Shown in pieces: positions 4,607 to 57,859 of a stretch of 64,000 nt of DNA. Numbering within the stretch: the first letter of the stretch is position 1; the number at the start of each line of letters is the position of its first letter. The notes under the pieces are model-generated. The model worked only from the letters and a program-made list of their open reading frames with translations. It ran no database searches and was not told the origin of the DNA. The position numbers and the translations under genes were made by a program. Source of the DNA: Podarcis gaigeae (Eukaryota); NCBI GenBank assembly GCA_964106915.2, contig OZ066923.1. One strand, written 5' to 3'.

Positions 4607-4831
4607 CAGTGTTACCTTGAGTTACATACGCTTCAGGTTACAGACTCCGCTAACCTAGAAATAGTACCTCGGGTTAAGAACTCTGCTTCAGGATGAGAAC
4701 AGAAATCAGGCTCCGGTGGAGCGGCAGCAGCAGGAGGCCCCATTAGCTAAAGTGGTGCTTCAGGTTAAGAACAGTTTCAGGTTGAGAATGGACCTCCAGA
4801 AACAATTAAGTTCTTAACCAAGGTACCACTG
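4607..4831 (+). mobile_element. Tigger/pogo-like MITE (uninterrupted copy)
   Basis: TA|CAGTGTTACCTTG...AAGGTACCACTG. Confidence 0.85.
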
Positions 4832-23875: not shown

Positions 23876-24338
23876 AAAGATCTCCTGCCCCCTTTGTTTT
23901 GACTGATCGGGGGAGGCTCGGGAGTTGTGGGTGGGCGGCTGTTGCCCAGTTTTTAAAAAAACTGTTCGCCTTTATGTTTCACAGGGTGCGAAAGAAGGGC
24001 TTTGCACCTTTATACAATATGCATGTGTGCTTGGGCCCAGGGTCTTTTGCCTCACCATCCCCACTACTGACTCCCTGTTGTTACTCACCTTCAAAAAAAA
24101 AAAAAAAAAAAAAAGGGTCCCTGGATTCATTGAAAAATCTGATAACCATACTGTAAGCCGACCTAGTTTACTGTGTCCGCCTGAGACCACGCCGTTCCTC
24201 CTTCCTGGTCATGACTGCTTTTGTTTCAAGAATTCGCGTTTTATTCTGCTTTTATCTAGTACACTGTTTCAGTGGCTTTGTGTTATGAGACTGCTTTTAG
24301 CAAGGGGCAGAATTTGACACCATTCTGAAGCAGGGACA

Positions 24339-24790
24339 CCTGCTGACACCTGGGGCGGACCAAAGTTCTTGAGCTTTCCTGAGGAAATCAAAGTCGTCAA
24401 GCTTATTTTAGGGCAGCCACCAATTTGTGCTGACATAAATATTTTCAGAAGCCATCCTCTGGATGGTTGAATGAGCCTAGGAGATCTTCCTACTGAAAGC
24501 TAACACTTCTACGGAAAGAACCAAAGGGCAGCTCATACGATCCATTACCCTGGAATAAAAACCCTTGAACATAACTTCAGCTTTTGAACTACTTACAAAC
24601 CCAAGAAACATCCTTTGCCTATATGGTCCTGTGAATAGTAATATAACTATTATGTATGGCAGATAGCATTTAACATTCCCTAGCGTAGCAACCCCTGCCA
24701 GCACCTGGGGCGGACCAAAGTTCTTGAGCTCTCCTGAGGAAATCAAAGTCATAAAGCTTTTTTTAGGGCAGCTGACCATAAGCCAACATA
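24339..24790 (+). repeat. Dispersed ~80-bp direct repeat pair (24339-24417 and 24694-24772)
   Basis: CACCTGGGGCGGACCAAAGTTCTTGAGCT(T/C)TCCTGAGGAAATCAAAGTC...TTTTAGGGCAGC occurs twice, 355 bp apart. Confidence 0.9.
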
Positions 24791-35190: not shown

Positions 35191-35323
35191 CAGGCAAAGG
35201 CAAACTCCAGCCCTCCAGATGTTTGGGACAATTCCCATCATCCCTGACCATTGGTCCTGTTAGCTAGGGATGATGGGAATTGTAGTCCCAAACCTCTGGG
35301 GGGCCGGCGTTTGCCTATGCCTG
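35191..35323 (+). mobile_element. Palindromic hAT MITE (same family)
   Basis: CAGGCA...TGCCTG termini with TSD TTATAG(C/G)T. Confidence 0.88.
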
Positions 35324-35707
35324 TTATAGGTGCTTTATTGCCTAAGGGGTTACCCTACATCTTATATACAACAACTCAGCTCTGCAAAAAAAGACAGCAC
35401 CTTTTCAAAGTCATTTTGAGAGACATACACCCAAAAGGCAGCTTCTGGAAGTGCTGCAATGGAAGGAGGAAGAAGAATGGCAGCGTGCGGGGGGGGGGGG
35501 GGTAAAATAAGCTTTTTCTTCCATTTTTTAATTCCATGCTCAGCTTTGAGCCAACTGACTCGCACCACAGGATGAAAAAACACCCATCTTTTGATCCTGC
35601 GCTCTGGCACAGAGAATGGAATATCCAGGATTGAGATCAGAAGTAGGGGAGGCTTCTCTCCATCTGGGATGCCCCGTTTAAAATGGGACAGTTTGCAACA
35701 TTAGATA

Positions 35708-36716
35708 CAGTGGTACCTCAGGTTACATACTGTCAGAGTTGCCTCCAGGTCCCAGCTCACAGAGGACCAACGCTAGTCAGTAATAACGTATAAAAGTCTT
35801 TATTGAAGATTAGTTTCCATTTCCAAACCGCAGCGTGCAACTCTACGTCTTAGAGCTTAGATCGGCAAAGCTCCATCTGAGTCTCCGCCTCTTAGACACC
35901 AGTTTAAGACTCTAGCCTTACTCCACCTCTTCCGTTGTTCTTTCCTCCTCTGGGTCCTTCTGCCCCCTGGGGTTTCCTCCTTTCTGGACTCTTCTGATGC
36001 TGACCCCCCTGAGTCTTGCCCCTCCTTCCGGCGGGCTTTAGGACCTGGCTCCCTATCCGGGCTACCTGCTGTGCCGCTCGCCTGTACATTTGAACTTGGC
36101 GCGCGCGCCCAGCCGGTAACTTTCCTCTTGACCGTTTCCCCGCTCTCCGATGAAGGCGTGGCCAGTCCTGACTCATCTCCTCTCGCTGGTGGTGAGAACA
36201 CTGGTCCCGATGCCTGGGAATCCTCCCCCCCCCACTGCGCTCTGGTGGGGAAGCTGGTCCTGATTTCCAACTGCTGCTCTGGGAGTCCCCGCTGGCCCCT
36301 TCCTTCTGGGGTTTCCCCCTTGGCACCCCCCTTGCCCTGGCCATCGGCGCTCCCTTCTGTGAATCTTCCGATTCGCTGGAGAGGCGCATGGAATCCCTCT
36401 GATCACTGTCACCGCCTACGCTCCCTTCGGATTCCTCCCCCTCACTCTCCATTTCCTCCCTCTCCTGTGCCTCTGCTCCTGAGCCCCTGACACATACGCT
36501 TCAGGTTACATACACTTCAGGTTACACACTCCGCTAACCCAGAAATAGTGCTTCAGGTTACAAACTTTGCTTCAGGATGAGAACAGAAATCGTGCTGTGG
36601 CGGCGTGGCTGCAGTGGGAGGCCCCATTAGCTAAAGTGGTGCTTCAGGTTAAGAACAGTTTCAGGTTAAGTACGGACCTCCGGAACGAATTAAGTACTTA
36701 ACCTGAGGTACCACTG
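35708..36716 (+). mobile_element. Tigger/pogo-like MITE hosting LTR copy 4
   Basis: TA|CAGTGGTACCTCAGGTTA...TAACCTGAGGTACCACTG|TA, same family as 4607. Confidence 0.9.
35731..36492 (-). mobile_element. Solo-LTR-like element, 762 bp, copy 4 (different family), nested in a MITE
   Basis: TGTCAG...CTGACA termini with TSD CATAC (35726-35730 / 36493-36497). AATAAA near the 3' end on the minus strand. A ~210-aa frame runs from base 2 with one frameshift at a 9-C run (36225-36233). Confidence 0.88.
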
Positions 36717-37827
36717 TACAATGTTTTGTAACATTAGATAGAGGAAGTGTTAAGAGTCTAATTGCTTCTGCAAGCTTAACTGTTCTCTCTCCAACGTTTT
36801 TCAAGCTCAATACCATCAGGCTACAGCTGCACACATTTAGTTTGGTCCAAAGTCTGCTAGCAGAAAGGGGACATTTGCACAAGGGTAAGGAAGGGTCAGT
36901 AGTTTTCTACAGAGATGCAGTGGTTCGAAAGAGCTTCAGCCCAGATCTTAGAAGATCTGCAGTTCTAGTCTGCCTGTGGCCAATTACAATTGACAATTAG
37001 GTTTATGAGATGTTCAGTGCATTGTGGAATACACTGCTATCTGTAGCCATAGAATAGTGTGGCTGGAAGGGATTTTAGCATATTATCCAGGTCGTGTCTC
37101 CTGTCCTAAAAGAGAATATACATCTTATTGCTCCTAAATTGCTTGTCTAGTCATCAAAAGCATCAAGGTGGATGATCTCACAACGTCCTTTAGGCAGTTT
37201 GGCTCAGTCCTAAGAATGTGCAATTTGAATGACTTCCTAGTAACTTAAAATTACTGAATCTTGTCCTGTATTCAGTGGAGAGGATTATATATTATATAAT
37301 ACAGAAAGAACTATGAACCTTTGGGGGAAAGTATAGTAGCGGAATACTGCGTTGCCCCTTCCCTGGAAGGTTGCTTGAAGAAATATTGACTGCCTTCATA
37401 GCAACAGCAGGTATGTTGGTAAAACTGTTCGTCAACCATTTTGAAATGTGTTGTGTGGAAGGAAGGCATAGGAGAGATTGCTCCTGCTTAAAAAAAGAAA
37501 AGAAAAAAACAGATTTTCTGTGCATGCAAAAATAATTATTACCCAACTTCCCCTGTCCTGCCTTGCATTGATATACTGAGTTTTCATATGTGTAGCAAAC
37601 ATCCCCGCCCCCAGGAAACATAGATATGTGGTCTCCTCCCACCCTTTTGCAGGCTGATGTGACAGAGTCCCAGAACAGTTTTTTGCCAGTTTACATGATG
37701 TTAGTGAGAACCTGGCCTTGTTCTCAGTGTGCCAAAGAAATGAAAAGCAAGTCCTGCAGCAGTTCCTTTGCCCTTATCATGATCATGTATTGTAAGCTGA
37801 TTTTCTCATAAGCCATGGGTATTCTAA

Positions 37828-38256
37828 AATCATAGAATCATAGAGTTGGAAGAGACCACAAGGGCCATTGAGTCCAACCCCCTGCCAAGCAGGAAACACC
37901 ATCAGAGCACTCCTGACATATGGTTGTCAAGCCTCTGCTTAAAGACCTCCAAAGAAGGAGACTCCACCACACTCCTTGGCAGCAAATTCCACTGTCGAAC
38001 AGCTCTTACTGTCAGGAAGTTCTTCCTAATGTTTAGGTGGAATCTTCTTTCTTGAAGTTTGGAACCATTGCTCCGTGTCCGCTTCTCTGGAGCAGCAGAA
38101 AACAACCTTTCTCCCTCCTCTATGTGACATCCTTTTATATATTTGAACATGGCTATCATATCACCCCTTAACCTCCTTTTCTCCAGGCTAAACATGCCCA
38201 GCTCTCTTAGCCGTTCCTCATAAGGCATCGTTTCCAGCCCTTTGGCCATTTTGGTT
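37828..38256 (-). mobile_element. CR1 LINE 3' fragment (same young family)
   Basis: Near-identical to the 3' part of the 40231 copy. TSD TATTCTAA. Confidence 0.95.
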
Positions 38257-38321
38257 TATTCTAATAAAATGACTTAATCAAAACTTTTTTAAGGTTGGAC
38301 CTCAGAGGCAAGGCTTTTTTA

Positions 38322-38682
38322 GGTAAAGGTAAAGGTACCCCTGCCCATACGGGCCAGTCTTGACAGACTCTGGGGTTGTGCACCCATCTCACTCAAGAGG
38401 CCAGGGACCAGCGCTGTCCGGAGACACTTCCGGGTCACGTGGCCAGCGTGACATCGCAGCTCTGGCGAGCCAGAGCCGCACACGGAAACGCCGTTTACCT
38501 TCCCGCTGGTAAGCGGTCCCTATTTATCTACTTGCACCCGGAGGTGCTTTCGAACTGCTAGGTTGGCAGGCGCTGGGACCGAGCAGCGGGATCGCACCCC
38601 GCCGCAGGGATTCGAACCGCCGACCTTTCCATCGGCAAGTCCTAGGCGCTGAGGCTTTAACCCACAGCGCCACCTGCGTCCC
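38322..38682 (-). mobile_element. Sauria SINE, young CpG-rich subfamily
   Basis: Near-identical to the 46240 and 53787 copies, with a GCAGGGGTACCTTTACC tail. Confidence 0.93.
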
Positions 38683-39808
38683 ATCCAGACAAGAGGTTAA
38701 CATCCAGACAAGAGGTTAAAAAAAAAAACAAGTAGGAACTACATTGACTATATAATTTTTAAATGGCTCATTTTCAGAGACTGTGAAATTCTAACCACTG
38801 TATTTCAACTTTTTACTATTTGCTACAATGGAAGAAATGCTAAGTGGATAGAAATTTCACAGTGTCTGTAAAGGCAACACGCACAAACGCACACGCACAC
38901 ACATCCTGTAGCCCATCAGGAAACATGAAAACAATAATTTTATAATGCAACTTTGGAATGGAAATTTAAACTCCCAAGGTAATTTTCCATTGACTATGCC
39001 CGGTGATGCGTGAATTACACTCGCAGGGATGGGTAAATAGGATTGGGCCTGATTGCTTCATCACCCCTCCATTATTTCAAATCTTCTGAAGGGGGGAGGG
39101 AACTTCACAGAGATGAATGTAGATTCCTTGTTTGAAAGCACAGTGGGGGGACACAACCCCATCAGTCCTACTGAGGAACACGGTCCCTGCCGTGAAATCA
39201 TAATTAATACCGTAACAATCTACTTATAAGCCTCAAAAGCGGCCCAGATGGGGATAAATTAGGAGCCGAATATTGTTAGCATTTTATTTAAATTAAACAG
39301 AAGTGTCTCTGACAGAACGCAAATCGTGTTACAGACTAAAAAAGGGATCAGATGAAGCAATTAAGGTGTAAGCAGTCGTTTGTTAGGTTTGTGTGTGCGA
39401 CTGTAAGGCCCGCAAAGTGCAGGATACAGAAGAACACACAGAAAATGGGAATGGTATACCAGCAGATGTTGAAACCGTCCGGGAGAAGTGGTGATCAGTA
39501 GGAAAGAAGTAGAGGATCAGTGCCGCAGTTTGAGAGGCTCTGTATAGTTGCTGGGATTCCTATTGAGGAAGAGGGCAAAGATCCATGGTGAAGCAAAAGC
39601 CTTATACAGTGGTACCTCGGGTTAAGAACTTAATTCGTTCTGGAGGCCTGTTCTTAACCTGAAACTGTTCTTAACCTGAGGTACCACTTTAGCTAATGGG
39701 GCCTCCCGCTGCCGCTGCACCACCACCATGAGATTTCTGTTCTCACCCTGAAGCATAGTTCTTAACACAAGGTACTATTTCTGGGTTAGTGGAGTCTGTA
39801 ACCTGAAG

Positions 39809-41027
39809 TGTTATGCCTATTGATGTGGTTGCTTGAGAGCAGTAGGCAAGGTCCCTCACTGGTCTTTTCAAAGGCTTTATTATTGGTGCAAACATTTACA
39901 ATGCAGAACGCCTCTATTCCATGTCTTGCTCACTCACTAGCAGAATCTGAGAGTGGGCGGTCCTTAAACTTTCCCCAGCAGAGTAGTCTCTTGACCCCCA
40001 GCCGACGCCTCCCCTTTCTGCGTGAAAGCCTACTGCGCAGGGAAGGCTTGGGTAAAGGGGGACCTCCCTCCTCCCCGCTTTGCTCAGGCACGGTGTCCTG
40101 GCTCTTTCTTGCATCCTCCGAGCCCTGCAGGTCTTCCCCACTAGAGGCATGGCTTCCTTCCTCCACTGAGGAAGTGCTGCTTCCCACGATTTTTGGAGGC
40201 TCTCTGTAATCCAGCTGCCCTTCCACCTCTCATAGAATCATAGAATCATAGAGTTGGAAGAGACCCCAAGGGCCATCGAGTCCAACCCCCTGCCAAGCTG
40301 GAAACCCCATCAGAGCACTCCTGACATATGGTTGTCAAGCCTCTGCTTAAAGACCTCCAAAGAAGGAGACTCCACCACACTCCTTGGCAGCAAATTCCAC
40401 TGTCGAACAGCTCTTACTGTCAGGAAGTTCTTCCTAATGTTTAGGTGGAATCTTCTTTCTTGTAGTTTGGATCCATTGCTCCGTGTCCGCTTCTCTGGAG
40501 CAGCAGAAAACAACCTTTCTCCCTCCTCTATGCGACATCCTTTTATATATTTGAACATGGCTATCATATCACCCCTTAACCTCCTCTTCTCCAGGCTAAA
40601 CATGCCCAGCTCCCTTAGCCGTTCCTCATAAGGCATCGTTTCCAGGCCTTTGACCATTTTGGTTGCCCTCCTCTGGACACGTTCCAGTTTGTCAGTGTCC
40701 TTCTTGAACTGTGGTGCCCAGAACTGGACACAGTACTCCAGGTGAGGTCTGCCCAGAGCAGAATACAGAGGCACTATTACTTCCCTTGATCTAGATGCTA
40801 TACTCCTATTGATGCAGTCCAGAATTGCATTGGCTTTTTTAGCTGCCGCGTCACACTGTTGGCTCATATCAAGTTTGTGGTCAACCAAGACTCCTAGATC
40901 CTTTTCACATGTACTGCTCTCAAGCCAGGTGTCACCCATCTTGTATTTGTGCCTCTCATTTCTTTTGCCCAAGTGCAATACTTTACATTTCTCCTCTCGC
41001 ATCTGAGCTGATGGCAGTTCCCTGACA
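39809..41027 (-). mobile_element. Solo-LTR-like element, ~452 bp, copy 3 (diverged subfamily), split by a CR1 and nested in a MITE
   Basis: Minus strand reads TGTCAGGGAACTGCCATCAG...AATAAA...GCATAACA. TSD TGAAG (39804-39808 / 41028-41032). Removing the CR1 and one TSD copy restores a 109-aa frame ending at the stop at 39930. Confidence 0.88.
40231..40992 (-). mobile_element. CR1 LINE 3' fragment (young), inserted in LTR copy 3
   Basis: ORF2 C-terminus (KCKVLHLG...[13 protein letters not shown]...RRLRGDMI), (ATTCTATG)n tail and TSD CCTCT. Confidence 0.96.
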
Positions 41028-41074
41028 TGAAGCGTCTGTAACAGCATGGTACTCCTTGACTACACAGTGAGGAA

Positions 41075-41257
41075 TGGCCATGGCTCAGTGACAGAGCATC
41101 TGCACTGCATGCAGGAGACACTAGGTTCAATCCTCAGCATCTCCCAGTAGGGCTGGGAACATCCTCTGTCCTAAAACCCTAAAGAACTGCTGCCAAAAAC
41201 GGAGCTAGATGGACCAATGGTCCAGTACAGTATAAGGTAGCTTCCTATGTTCCTATG
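41075..41257 (+). mobile_element. tRNA(Ala-like)-derived SINE (Squam3-like)
   Basis: GGCTCAGTGACAGAGCATCTGC..GGTTCAATCC..GCATCTCC head and CTTCCTATGTTCCTATG tail. Confidence 0.8.
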
Positions 41258-42544
41258 ACCTTGCTTGAGATGACTAATGGTCTGGTTTCTGAGAGAGAAT
41301 CTCCAGGGCGCATATGCAAACAAGCGTAATGGTTTAGGAACTGGATGCAAGGTTCTTCTCTTGCCTATTCTATGAATTTAGGCATGGAGGGGCAATTTGT
41401 GGCATGTTCCCCAGAGGTAGGGAGGTTGCTGCTGGTGGTTTAATGCTTAGATAGCCCCGCGGACTCAGTAGATCAGAGGGTAAATCAACCCAAGGGATAG
41501 GGAGGAATTTTATGCACTATAGTGGGTGAAAGGGTGGCACAATCCAAAACTGTGGACTAGATTTTGGGCACACTTGCAGAAAGATTGACCAGGACTGAAC
41601 AAGGGGAACAATATTAGTAATAGCTAAGGAGCAACAACTTGAGGATCCAGCAAAATATATTTTGATGGGCTCGATGTGCTAACTCACAGGTACATAATGT
41701 TTCCAGAATTTTAGGGCTGTAAATGGTGCCCAGTGCTGTATTGCTATAATCATGTTGGTCACAGGAGACTGGCATATGCTGTGCTATTGAACAGCTTCCT
41801 AAAAATTTCTGAGTGCCATATGGAGGGGCTTCACTGTGCCAGCCTCTTAATGCCTATTGTCTTTATGAGTCTGCCAGAAGAACAAGGGAGAGGGTGAGCC
41901 TTGAGAACTCTGGCTGACATTTCCACTAAAGGCTTTTCTTAACCTTGGTTGGACCCAATCGAGGTGTCAATGCTGCATCCAACTGTTTTCGAATCAAGAC
42001 AGTTCTTTGCTTCCATGACTGATATGGGTGCTATACAGTATTTTACTCCTTTAAAAGCTAGATTATATATTATGGTTGCCACAGGGAAATTTTCTTTAAA
42101 TTGCTTTGTGCAATGGCTATTACCACATTAGCTATTTGCATGAAGGAACTTGTCACATAGACTTCTGTCCACAACATTGCAAAGGAGCAAAAAAGAAAAG
42201 ATGTGCAATGTCTGAATCAGTTGCTGCATATGAGCAGTTTTTTGTGGAATAATGCTTGCTGCATGGAACAATATAAAGTTGCCTCCATATCAGGCATGCA
42301 TAGCAGGCATGCACCTTTGGGATGTTTCTGCATGCAGCTTTGCTGCTGCAGACTCAAGTGGCCTTGGTGGCTAGGGGTGTCTTTCATAGGCTTCAGCCGG
42401 TAAAACCTCTGTATCTGTTCGTGGACCAGGACAGCTTGACCACAGTGGTTTAGGAATTGGGAACTTCAAGACTGGTCTACTGCAATGCACTCTACATGGG
42501 GCTTCCCTTGTGCTTGTTTCCAGAAAATGCAAAATACCGCAACA

Positions 42545-45099: not shown

Positions 45100-45431
45100 G
45101 GGCTTATTCATACTTACCTTTCTTCTGCTCTTTCCAGGCATAGTTTGTGCTTTATAGCTCCATGTCTGAGCACCCGCCCTTTTTTTTTTTTTTTTTTGCT
45201 CCAGAGCTTTCCCTGTAAAAACTTGCTCTTTAAAGCTCAATCGGAGCAAATGTCACTCCACTGAAAGTCCCAATTGATGTTTGCTCCAATTGAGCTCCAA
45301 AGAGCAGGTTTTTGCAGTGAAAGCTTTAGGGCAAAAAAGAAGAAAAAAGAAAGAAATGTTTGGGCATGGAGCTTTCAAGCACAGACCTGGGCCTGGAAAT
45401 AGCAGGGAAAGGGGTATGTGTGGATCACCCC
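45100..45431. mobile_element. PIF/Harbinger-type palindromic MITE
   Basis: GGG...CCC ends, TTA TSD (45097-45099 / 45432-45434). The whole element is an imperfect inverted repeat. Confidence 0.75.
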
Positions 45432-46239
45432 TTAGTCCCTATCCAAAGGCTTGCAACCTACAACCAACAGACAAGACGGGAGTGGTGGGAGAGTACTGGG
45501 AATGACATAGATGGTGGGTGGAGAAATAGAGGAGTCAGGAGTTGTACACTGCTTAGAGGCTGTAGTACAGTCAAGTGTTGCGTACATTTTGTTAAACACA
45601 AAATAAAAAAAATAGGAGAGTCAAAAAGAGGGACAGCAGCTGTGGCAGAGAGACTGAGAGGGGTAGATGCACAGAAGCAAAGAAAAGCTGACAAAGGAGG
45701 ATGGGATAATACAAACACAGCAAAGCAAGTATGAGAAAATGTCTTCTCTAAATCACATGGAAAGGGAGGCATGGCAAGGTGGAAGATCAGCATGAAGGAG
45801 CTGAGATAAGAGATGACCAGAATGTCAATAAGGCTCTTAGTATATGTGCAGAAAGGAAAGAATATAACATGGAAGAGGAAAAAGCATCAGAATTTTGTTA
45901 CCACAAACAACCAACTAGGCATATACCGCTTCTAACAATGTTAAAAGAATGGAATTAACACCATCAACAAATCACATGTTTTGAAATATAACAGTCAAAA
46001 TATTTATACTTCTTCATATGATTTTAAAATCTGCATTACAATATGTGGTTCCCAAGGTGGAGAAGAATAATACGATCCACATAGCCATAAAATAACCATA
46101 AAATTGACAGCAAAAGGAATAAAATGACAATTTCAAACCACAGCGACAATAAGCAATTGCAACTCTAACTGGGATTGGACAGTTGTGATCCATGTCTGGG
46201 TAACCTCCTCTTTAGACTACAGTACTCTAAGGTGACGCA

Positions 46240-50525: not shown

Positions 50526-51288
50526 TGTTGTTGTTGTTTAGTCATTTAGTCGTGTCCGACTCTTCGTGACCCCATGGACCAGAGCATGCCAGGCACTTCT
50601 GTCCTCCACTGCCTCCCACAGTTTGGTCAAACTCATGCTGGTAGCTTCGAGAACATCATCCAACCATCTCGTCCTCTGTCGTCCCCTTCTCCTTGTGCCC
50701 TCCATCTTTCCCAACATCAGGGTCTTTTCCAGGGAGTCTTCTCTTCTCATGAGGTGGCCAAAGTTTTGGAGCCTCAGCTTCAGGATCTGTCCTTCCAGTG
50801 AGCACTCAGGGCTGATTTCCTTCAGAATGGAGAGGTTTGATCTTCTTGCAGTCCATGGGACTCTCAAGAGTCTCCTCCAGCACCATAATTCAAAAGCATC
50901 AATTCTTCGGCTTTCAGCCTTCTTTATGGTCCAGCTCTCACTTCCATACATCGCTACTGGGAAAACCATAGCTTTTACTATACGGACCTTTGTTGGCAAG
51001 GTGATGTCTCTACTTTTTAAGATGCTGTCTAGGTTTGTCATTGCTTTTCTCCCAAGAAGCAGGCGTCTTTTATTTTCGTGGCTGGTGTCACCAACTGCAG
51101 TGATCATGGAGCCCAAGAAAGTAAAATCTCTCACTGCCTCCATTTTCCCCCCTTCTATTTGCCAGGAGGTGATGGGACCAGTGGCCATGAGCTTTGTTTT
51201 TTTGATGTTGAGCTTCAGACCATATTTTACGCTCTCCTCTTTCACCCTCAATAGAAGGTTCTTTAATTCCTCCTCACTTTCTGCCATC
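50526..51288 (-). mobile_element. BovB (RTE) LINE, 5'-truncated
   Basis: Intact 249-aa RT C-terminus (MAESEEELKNLL...HGVTKSRTRLND), (CAA)n tail and TSD AGAAGGCTGTT (50515-50525 / 51289-51299). Confidence 0.96.
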
Positions 51289-52079
51289 AGAAGGCTGTTG
51301 GGGTGTGTGTGAAGAGATGCAACATGGGTTGCATGTGGGGCTGCTCAAGTGGGAGACCTGAGTGCTCTGTGTGATGCAGCCGTGTGAGGATTTTATCATG
51401 CAGCTCCTGGGCCACCTCCACAGGAGAGAAAATGCTGTCTGTGGAGCTAGTCTCTCCCGCGCTTTCTCACTGCAATAAGCATTCTAGGGGCTAATTAAAT
51501 CAATTCATCTGTGCGGTGCTTGGACATCTCTTGAAATGCTCGCTGGGGCTTCTCTTCTAACTCACTCACTGGCTGTCCCCGTGAGTTTTGGAGGTAAACA
51601 AGTGCCTCTACAGTAGCAGCAAAATGCTAATTTTACTCGGGGAATGCTCAGCAGCCAGCAAAGGCCGAAGCCCCAAAGATGCATTGTTCATGCTGAGCTC
51701 TCTGCTCATTTTCAGCCTCAGGCTGTGTACCAGCACTGCACAATGAGCTCCCTATGATTATTTGCATTGTTTATTATTTCGAGTGTGATATTGCCTGAGG
51801 GGCTTTTAGGTGTACAGAGCTTTAATTTTTCTCATCATTTCTTGGCACCAGGTAGGAAAATTGGCTCTTGCATCCTCGCCGCATTTGCAAAGCATTCCAC
51901 AAGCCGTAGCTATAAATAAACCTCTTTTTAATGTGCCTTCAATGGCAAACTGCCTTTTCTGGCGGCATCTTTGGCACCTCTCTGCAAAGCCATACAGCAC
52001 CATTATGGCACATCAACAATGCCCGAATAGGAAGTGCTAGTGTAACTATTTTTATATGAACCATTTACAGTTAGTTATA

Positions 52080-56398: not shown

Positions 56399-57859
56399 CT
56401 GTTATTTAGCCTGCCAGCGAAAGTCACTAGGCTGGCAAGGTGCTAGGCTCTCTCAGTGGTGGCCCCAGATCTTTGGATCTCCCTCCCAAACTCATCACCT
56501 TATTCAAGTCTGTGTTTGCATGAATTATGCTGCACTTGGAAAACAAATATTAAGCTGCTTTGGGCATATGTGAGAATTTCATAATTTTATGTTCCTGTGT
56601 TTTAAAGTCTTATAAGTCGCCTTGTGGTGGTAGTGTGTGCTGAAGGGCAGGTTTCAAATAAACAGATAAATAACTTGTAAGCCACTCTGGGTTCCTTGGA
56701 GTAAGGGTGGGATAAAAATGTAATAATAATAGTCTCCCAATCCAACCTAGCACTTTCGAGAAATCTGGAGAGGAAAAGCTGTAACCTATTATTGGCCTCT
56801 TGTTTTATTTTGGTGCTTCCTCCCCCTCCCTGCACCATCATGCCCCAGATATTTAGCTAATTGGAACTGCATATTTCCAGCATAAGTCTTTGGCTGTAAT
56901 TTGGTGCAGCTGTTTTAGGGCTCTAAGTAGGAATCTGAAATGATTTAATTATAATGCGCATGCATCAGGAACGGCAAGGCAATTACAAATAACAACCATA
57001 GAAATGCTAATAGACAGAGCTTTGTTAGGGAGGAGGAAGACAAGAGACTGTTTCAATGCGAGCAATTACAAGGGCCCGCTGTATGCTGGAAAATGAACTG
57101 GCCTTCAAAACATTTTGACGCTTTCATTTGTACATAAAATAAAAGGTCTCCGAAGGGGGCTGCCTGACAAATCGGGGTATTGGTGGTAAAGGAGGCGGGA
57201 TATCCCTCATGCGAGAAACATGCAAAAGAACATTTGCACATGAAAGTCAGCATGGCTGCACTGCCTGCCACACTGATGTTCAACATGCGCTTTAGTCCTC
57301 AGTGTGGATCAGGCCTGCTGTGTTTCAAGCTGCAGTTCAGGCAACTCGGCGTCTACTATTAAATATAGATTTAATGCTTATTCTAAGGGTCTGACTGTGG
57401 CTGCTCTGTTGTTACCACTTTAGACATTAGAGCACCCAAGTTACTACGATGTTGCAAACCTGAATCTCTCCCCTCAAAACAGAGGATATGAAGCACTCTC
57501 AAGAATGCTGAAATGTGGAATGCCTTGAAAGGCATCCTGAAAACGAATCATCTTTCCAACAAAACAGAGTACATGAAGTACATTCCCACCTTCATACCAT
57601 CGCAAAAGCTGAAATTTCTTACATACATATTCCAAAATGGACCAAGTGGAAAGTATGAGACCATGACATTAATAACAAAAAAACCCACCTCCTTCATTCT
57701 AAATGGGAGACATGAGGTATACCCTCACAAGGGTTAATAGATTTCTAGGCCAACCAGAAAGCTGAATTTGAAGGTTTATTTATACCATTTATTTGCTTAT
57801 TATCTATGTAGACCATGGCATTGCAAAGTGGGGGAAGAGGTATGTTTTAGAAGCTAATA

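Follow-up and report, generated by a model that had tools for sequence, protein, structure and literature searches.

Two different solo LTRs at nearly the same position in two copies of one lizard MITE, probably a case of ordinary nesting

We analyzed a 64,000-nucleotide stretch of the Podarcis gaigeae genome (contig OZ066923.1 of assembly GCA_964106915.2; hereafter the window), in which two copies of one miniature inverted-repeat transposable element (MITE) of ~225 bp are each interrupted by a solo long terminal repeat (LTR) at nearly the same position. The uninterrupted reference copy of the family, MITE A (4607..4831, + strand), is 87% identical to the first interrupted copy, MITE B, and 89% identical to the second, MITE C. 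MITE B spans 35708-36716 on the + strand and is flanked by TA on both sides. Its left piece (35706..35730) comprises the TA target duplication, the terminal inverted repeat, and a first CATAC (35726-35730), and its right piece (36493..36718) comprises the second CATAC, two 16-bp units (36493-36508 and 36509-36524), the body, the right terminal inverted repeat, and TA. MITE C lies on the − strand; its right piece (39605..39808) contains TA, the terminal inverted repeat, the body, and one copy of a 5-bp duplication (39804-39808), and its left piece (41028..41058) contains the second copy of that duplication, the start of a 16-bp unit, and a degraded terminal repeat. At this left end, the LTR-adjacent bases match copy A at 14 of 15 positions, and the terminal repeat beyond them matches poorly. 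MITE D (57861..~58110, − strand, far end approximate) is uninterrupted and belongs to a sister family of the same layout, in which GGTTGC replaces the GGTTA repeats.

The length of 225 bp, non-coding sequence, terminal inverted repeats, TA duplication (seen on both sides of B), and high copy number identify the element as a MITE of the Tc1/mariner superfamily; from its CAGTG..CACTG ends, we take it to be of the pogo/Tigger type. MITE B has one 16-bp unit more than intact copy A. A longer target duplication as the origin of this unit is ruled out by the sequence, and multi-unit MITEs without an LTR exist. Among genomic copies represented in contigs of related sequencing runs, the number of such units at the MITE left end differs, being one, two, or more.

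The LTR in MITE B, L4 (35731..36492, − strand), is 762 bp long, has TG..CA ends and an AATAAA 74 bases from its 3′ end, and is bounded by the two copies of CATAC (35726-35730 and 36493-36497). The LTR in MITE C, L3 (39809..41027, − strand), also has TG..CA ends and consists of ~450 bp plus a later insertion of a long interspersed nuclear element (LINE); its target duplication is TGAAG on the + strand, or CTTCA in MITE sense. The inserted LINE, a 3′ fragment of CR1 type (40232..40992, − strand), carries its own 6-bp duplication, CCTCTC, and forms the third layer of the nest. The names CR1, Sauria SINE, and Bov-B, as we apply them to repeats in the window, are our assumption. Two further solo LTRs lie outside the MITEs: L1 (7752..8168, − strand, duplication GAAGG) and L2 (22731..23165, + strand, duplication GATGC), the latter within a CR1-type 3′ end. 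Each of the four has TG..CA ends, an exact 5-bp target duplication, and no internal genes, and tblastn with the reptile-type integrases P0003, P0009, and P0010 found no internal retrotransposon region in the 64-kb window. Two additional TG..CA candidates with 5-bp flanks, at 45251-46109 and 56719-57677, showed no likeness to LTR or integrase queries and were dropped from the counts; on inspection, the former is sequence without LTR features.

At the DNA level, L1 and L2 are 87% identical and L2 and L3 ~70% identical, and L4 shows no likeness to L1–L3 (local scores of 20-24, equalled by 47, 47, and 154 of 200 shuffles). L4 and L3 both lie on the − strand and MITEs B and C face opposite ways, so the two LTRs are oppositely oriented relative to the MITE. 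An earlier note on this DNA had described two LTR insertions in two copies of one ~225-bp MITE, made independently by different families in opposite orientation; the TG..CA ends, the exact CATAC and CTTCA duplications, the lack of DNA likeness between L4 and L1–L3, and the facing of the MITEs bear this out.

L1–L3 encode a protein tail. The frame is open from LTR base 2 for 103 codons in L1 (P0001) and 109 codons in L2, and in L3 the integrase-tail part (39933..40229, − strand) is open for 99 codons downstream of the LINE insertion; all three frames end in a common basic, Trp-containing motif. Purifying selection acts on this tail: over the regions compared (7859-8167 in L1, 22732-23058 in L2, and 39933-40229 in L3), the ratio of non-synonymous to synonymous differences (pN/pS) is 0.43 for the L1/L2 tail (Fisher p 0.003) and 0.25 for the L2/L3 C-terminal motif (p 2e-7). 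A profile search over 1.84 billion proteins gave five matches, the best of which, P0003 (E 1e-28), consists of the C-half of an integrase, an SH3_Tf2-1 domain (E 6.7e-20), and a Chromo domain (E 3.4e-11), followed by the LTR tail; its last 102 residues match the frames of L1–L3 (tblastn E 2e-33, 1e-26, and 3e-20). Among named proteins, integrases of Podarcis muralis come closest. Because the integrase and chromodomain of P0003 end in the tail of L1–L3, these LTRs are, as judged from sequence, derived from a chromovirus (a chromodomain-bearing Ty3/Gypsy element) in which the pol frame continues into the 3′ LTR. Searching with the tail alone yielded no homologues among 534 and 705 candidates, and the P0003 tail reached a top score of 0.76 in the ESM Atlas.

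L4 also has an open frame (P0002; 35907..36491, − strand), which runs from its base 2 for 195 codons, is rich in Ser, Glu, Gly, and Arg, and was equalled in length in 3 of 2000 shuffles. It is likely the read-through tail of its element's pol frame. Comparison with P0003 gave a weak, low-complexity tblastn match (E 0.006, 27%), comparison with Pfam and the ESM Atlas gave no usable match (no homologue search was run with this frame), and its likeness to the L1 tail is not significant. The LTR end motifs of the Sushi group, TGTYANR and CNTNACA as given in the covered part of PMC3601003, are found at the 5′ end of all four LTRs and at the 3′ end of three (L4 is off by one base), and AATAAA is found in two of four. 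L4 is probably of chromovirus type as well. The earlier note had suggested a possible link between the landing site and an LTR-encoded tail. Such a tail exists in L1–L3, but its link to the MITE finds no support, in that the best-kept tails, those of L1 and L2, lie outside MITEs and that of L4 is not significantly alike.

In intact copy A, CATAC begins at position 19 and CTTCA at position 25. The spacing of ~6 bp proposed earlier thus holds when counted from the MITE left end; counted from the right end, it is 22 bp, because B carries the extra 16-bp unit. The repeats held responsible for this proximity are not confined to the insertion sites: CTTCAGGTTA-like units are spread along the whole MITE (B's right part has six), and for 44% of copy A a motif copy is no more than 6 bp away. 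Since the motif runs across the whole MITE, an insertion near it says little. The four LTR target sites share no motif, and they show no palindrome excess, as 12-86% of background sites score equally high.

Parts of the stretch are contained in 24 sequencing runs, and we compared four of these (four organisms, two studies) over 35520-36980 at 80% likeness, a region that covers MITE B and L4 and hence only the L4 family. The comparison drew on the best 15 of 247 joints, under a ranking rule that we reconstructed, and on 32 of 203,268 pieces. In all four runs, the summed contig depth of the MITE exceeds that of the L4 LTR, by 39, 50, 93, and 58 times. By contig depth the L4 family is itself high-copy: one of its contigs has a depth of 17083 against 10.3 for unique flank, which by division corresponds to ~1100-1700 copies, contig depth not being the same as copy number. 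At this abundance, chance would place 12-19 L4 copies in the MITE and 0.6-0.9 in a given 11-bp stretch.

The best 15 of 247 joints consist of 11 MITEs without an LTR, three deletions within LTR copies, and one joint inside the MITE; none among them connects an LTR end of the L4 family to another MITE position or strand. We simulated how often a strand-change joint would appear among these 15 if copies entered a hot spot of 11-22 bp, with the cut-off presumed to be the smallest summed depth among them, 157. With run X6 left out, the chance of such a joint is 0.95-1.0 if 20% of copies lie in the hot spot, 0.01-0.77 at 10%, and <0.01 at 5%; with X6, which is not fully counted, it is 0.77-0.99 at 5%. 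The missing LTR-MITE joints argue against a hot spot taking at least ~20% of insertions and are compatible with one taking 1-10%. No weight was given to the lack of loose ends at the LTR termini, which concerns 24 of 1703 rows.

The contigs also bear on whether a transposase might have moved LTR-carrying MITEs, so that the same junctions became over-represented in many copies, which the earlier note had offered as an alternative. MITE B retains both terminal repeats and the TA duplication around its LTR and would be movable as a 1-kb unit, and copies that share one junction would escape the joint table. However, two contigs among the 32 of 203,268 pieces (records 1 and 10) reach the LTR end and continue into other flanks, sequence unplaced on the stretch, and a 172-base L4-family contig with a depth of 2199 (record 18) starts at approximately the LTR terminus without running into the MITE. 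Record 17, the orthologous left flank from another organism, matches up to 35730 and differs in the next three letters, which hints weakly that the MITE B locus lacks the LTR in that organism. In addition, the left terminal repeat of MITE C is degraded, and two different composites would still require two insertions at one spot. We consider such composite amplification improbable.

Beyond the two nested LTRs, MITE sequence was found at none of six flanks of these LTR families (L1, L2, the gene models P0004 and P0005, and records 1 and 10). The tally excludes P0006, whose flank is non-MITE; P0007 has no upstream part, and P0003, P0009, and P0010 represent internal junctions. In P0004, which belongs to the L3 subfamily, and in P0005, the peptides that precede the LTR frame match the MITE translation no better than shuffles do (204 and 56 of 300). 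Both come from UniRef as gene models of Podarcis muralis, for a Sec7 and a Gla protein, and contain the LTR-coded tail in frame, which reflects either the capture of solo LTRs as exons or an error of annotation. Scanning metagenomes with the LTR start of L2 and L3 gave two matches that are unlike the window beyond the pattern, and we took these as chance.

The families thus differ from a target-specific retrotransposon such as Tx1, in which most copies occupy one target position. Targeting of that strength, with at least a fifth of the copies of an LTR family lying in the MITE motif, would account for two of the four LTRs in the window being in MITEs. Yet it predicts a joint with a chance of 0.95-1.0 at 20% of copies, and neither the best 15 of 247 joints nor any of the six other flanks, including the non-MITE flank of the L3-subfamily copy P0004, provides one; we therefore consider it very improbable. 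The same observations, together with the extent of the motif and the lack of a shared site motif, lead us to set aside integration targeted to subterminal GGTTAC repeats as the dominant mechanism.

We favor, at somewhat better than even, the reading that the two LTRs landed at almost the same position largely by coincidence, in a resident MITE that offers an abundant target, that is, ordinary nesting followed by recombination to solo LTRs. Under a uniform model in which the three copies of the family make up 1.1% of the window, the probability that at least two of four LTRs fall in the MITE is 7e-4. Several considerations count against coincidence. Including the sister copy, two of four MITE-type copies hold an LTR, with a probability of 1.3e-3; for both LTRs to fall within 6 bp, the uniform model gives 4e-5 for the MITE family; and when the four commonest repeats of the window (the SINE, or short interspersed nuclear element, two LINE types, and the MITE) are summed, because such a pattern would be flagged in any common repeat, the probability is 1.2e-3 for a distance of up to 6 bp and 4.1e-3 for up to 22 bp. 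The evidence from LTR-MITE joints is confined to 15 of 247 joints and 32 of 203,268 pieces of the L4 family, ranked by a reconstructed rule. Its power at 10% of copies is 0.02-0.27 with the most cautious copy numbers (~1 at 30%), and LTR copies at the same site and in the same orientation cannot appear as joints. Finally, the flank sample is small: zero of six allows up to 39%, and splicing may have affected two of these flanks, which come from gene models. The coincidence exceeds chance for one blindly taken window and comes within reach when many are scanned; for a window chosen because it showed the coincidence, it is not decisive; the earlier judgment that it is unlikely by chance holds for the MITE family taken singly and is weakened when any common repeat and the picking of the window are considered.

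The chief alternative to coincidence is a modest hot spot shared by both families, with ~1-10% of their insertions, 20-200x the random share, entering the 16-bp units at the MITE left end. A protein occupying the repeated CTTCAGGTTA sites could provide the steering, as could bent DNA or a nucleosome edge at that place, and the integrase tail would sense it. The coincidence itself speaks for such a site at the probabilities just given, as does the low power of the joint table at 5-10% (0.00-0.77 without X6), and unrelated LTRs in opposite orientation at neighboring positions form a pattern that would be expected of tethered integration. Elements aimed at elements have precedents, among them Tx1L in Tx1D and Tourist in Tourist (covered parts of PMC6719617 and PMC1950540), and plant LTR elements nest non-randomly (covered part of PMC6911290). 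On the other side, no LTR-MITE joint is found among the best 15 of 247 even though the power including the incompletely counted X6 reaches 0.77-0.99 at 5%, the motif lies all along the MITE (within reach of 44% of it), the L3 and L4 tails show no significant likeness (386 of 1000 shuffles score as well), and the MITE is missing from the six other flanks. We regard this hot spot as unlikely, though a serious candidate, and we allow a slight chance for readings other than coincidence, hot spot, composite amplification, and strong targeting.

In the favored reading, the locus formed in several steps, of which the sequence itself shows the anatomy, the duplications, and the order of the layers. 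A short non-autonomous DNA transposon with CAGTG..CACTG ends and a TA duplication reached very high copy number in the lacertid lineage; later, two different LTR retrotransposons entered MITE copies already in place, each duplicating 5 bp; each insertion would then have been cut down to a solo LTR through recombination of its two LTRs; and a LINE afterwards inserted into L3. The site choice of the L3 chromovirus would most likely have been set at the chromatin level by its integrase tail, with a chromodomain, acidic FxGF motifs, and the LTR-coded basic motif, and not by DNA repeats of the MITE.

The candidate tethering motifs lie between the chromodomain and the LTR, where all four reptile-type integrases (P0003, P0008, P0009, and P0010) have one or two acidic FxGF stretches each, six in total. 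Each is made up of a putative Trp/Phe helix, an acidic Ser/Thr linker, and FxGF (residues 277-298 and 323-344 in P0003). The fish relative P0011 has a short tail with no FxGF. A low-confidence structure model of P0003 (mean pLDDT 45) places a helix at residues 277-285, before the first motif, and none before the second, with the rest of the tail disordered. These stretches resemble the TND-interacting motifs (TIMs) described in the covered part of PMC9987994, in which a helix, an acidic, Ser/Thr-rich linker of 8-16 residues, and FxGF occur in series, and whose FxGF form binds LEDGF/HRP2, readers of H3K36me2/3 that tether lentiviral integration; the resemblance points to possible tethering at the chromatin level. 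Those TIMs were described in host proteins, whereas the present candidates sit in an integrase internal region that is lost from the window. By title and abstract, we found no paper on FxGF/LEDGF tethering by a retrotransposon or chromovirus integrase in the literature searched, outside which most subscription journals fall. Taken alone, a LEDGF tether used by the lizard chromovirus integrase seems to us a real possibility, if somewhat short of an even one, and more probable than the MITE hot spot. Such a tether would bias the choice of chromatin over kilobases and would not by itself account for a 6-bp coincidence. That a three-part tail of chromodomain, tandem TIM-like FxGF motifs, and LTR-coded basic motif modestly favors left-end sites of pogo-type MITEs as a safe haven, in at least two families, appears to us doubtful.

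Among known systems, the vertebrate Sushi-group chromoviruses (Metaviridae) are alike in their SH3_Tf2-1 (GPY/F) domain and chromodomain, in the LTR end motifs as far as they are present (four of four 5′ ends, three of four 3′ ends), and in 5-bp duplications; the family represented in the window differs in its long post-chromodomain tail, acidic FxGF motifs, and ~100 LTR-coded residues. In CRM and some other plant chromoviruses, the 3′ LTR likewise codes for the end of the pol frame, which in CRM elements closes with a conserved motif, the CR motif, a putative targeting domain (covered part of PMC3605345). In the centromeric CRM elements, this motif replaces a classical chromodomain, whereas in the lizard family a classical chromodomain precedes the LTR and the LTR-coded motif comes in addition. 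The Tx1L element of Xenopus resembles the present case as a retroelement inside a short DNA transposon, Tx1D. Tx1L is, however, a non-LTR element that has a sequence-specific endonuclease and occupies a single fixed site, whereas the lizard case involves LTR elements at two sites and in two orientations, with most copies seen elsewhere. Among the papers listed on LTR elements within MITEs and on Gypsy insertion in lizards, we found none on this MITE family, and nothing on it in the covered part of PMC10058329; supplementary repeat libraries may already name these families.

Between MITEs B and C lie two unrelated repeats, a CR1-type LINE 3′ fragment (37825..38256, − strand) and a SINE, presumably a Sauria SINE (38324..38682, − strand). 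Two CR1-type 3′ fragments 2.4 kb apart (37825-38256 and 40233-40664) are 97% alike and far less similar to the remaining six of the window, and this likeness reflects either a young subfamily or local gene conversion. Elsewhere, an 82-base direct repeat (24336-24417 and 24691-24772; 90% alike, 355 bases apart) and a LINE reverse-transcriptase end that is open for 268 codons (50538-51344, − strand; presumably Bov-B-like) were observed. An Rfam scan of 35300-41500 gave no matches.

As it stands, the finding is probably one of ordinary nesting. Should the hot spot be true, it would be a vertebrate LTR counterpart of Tx1L in Tx1D, involving a single defined DNA site and a single defined protein tail. 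The integrase tail poses a question of its own, namely whether vertebrate chromoviruses may settle on chromatin via the host proteins used by lentiviruses, by copying the host FxGF motif.

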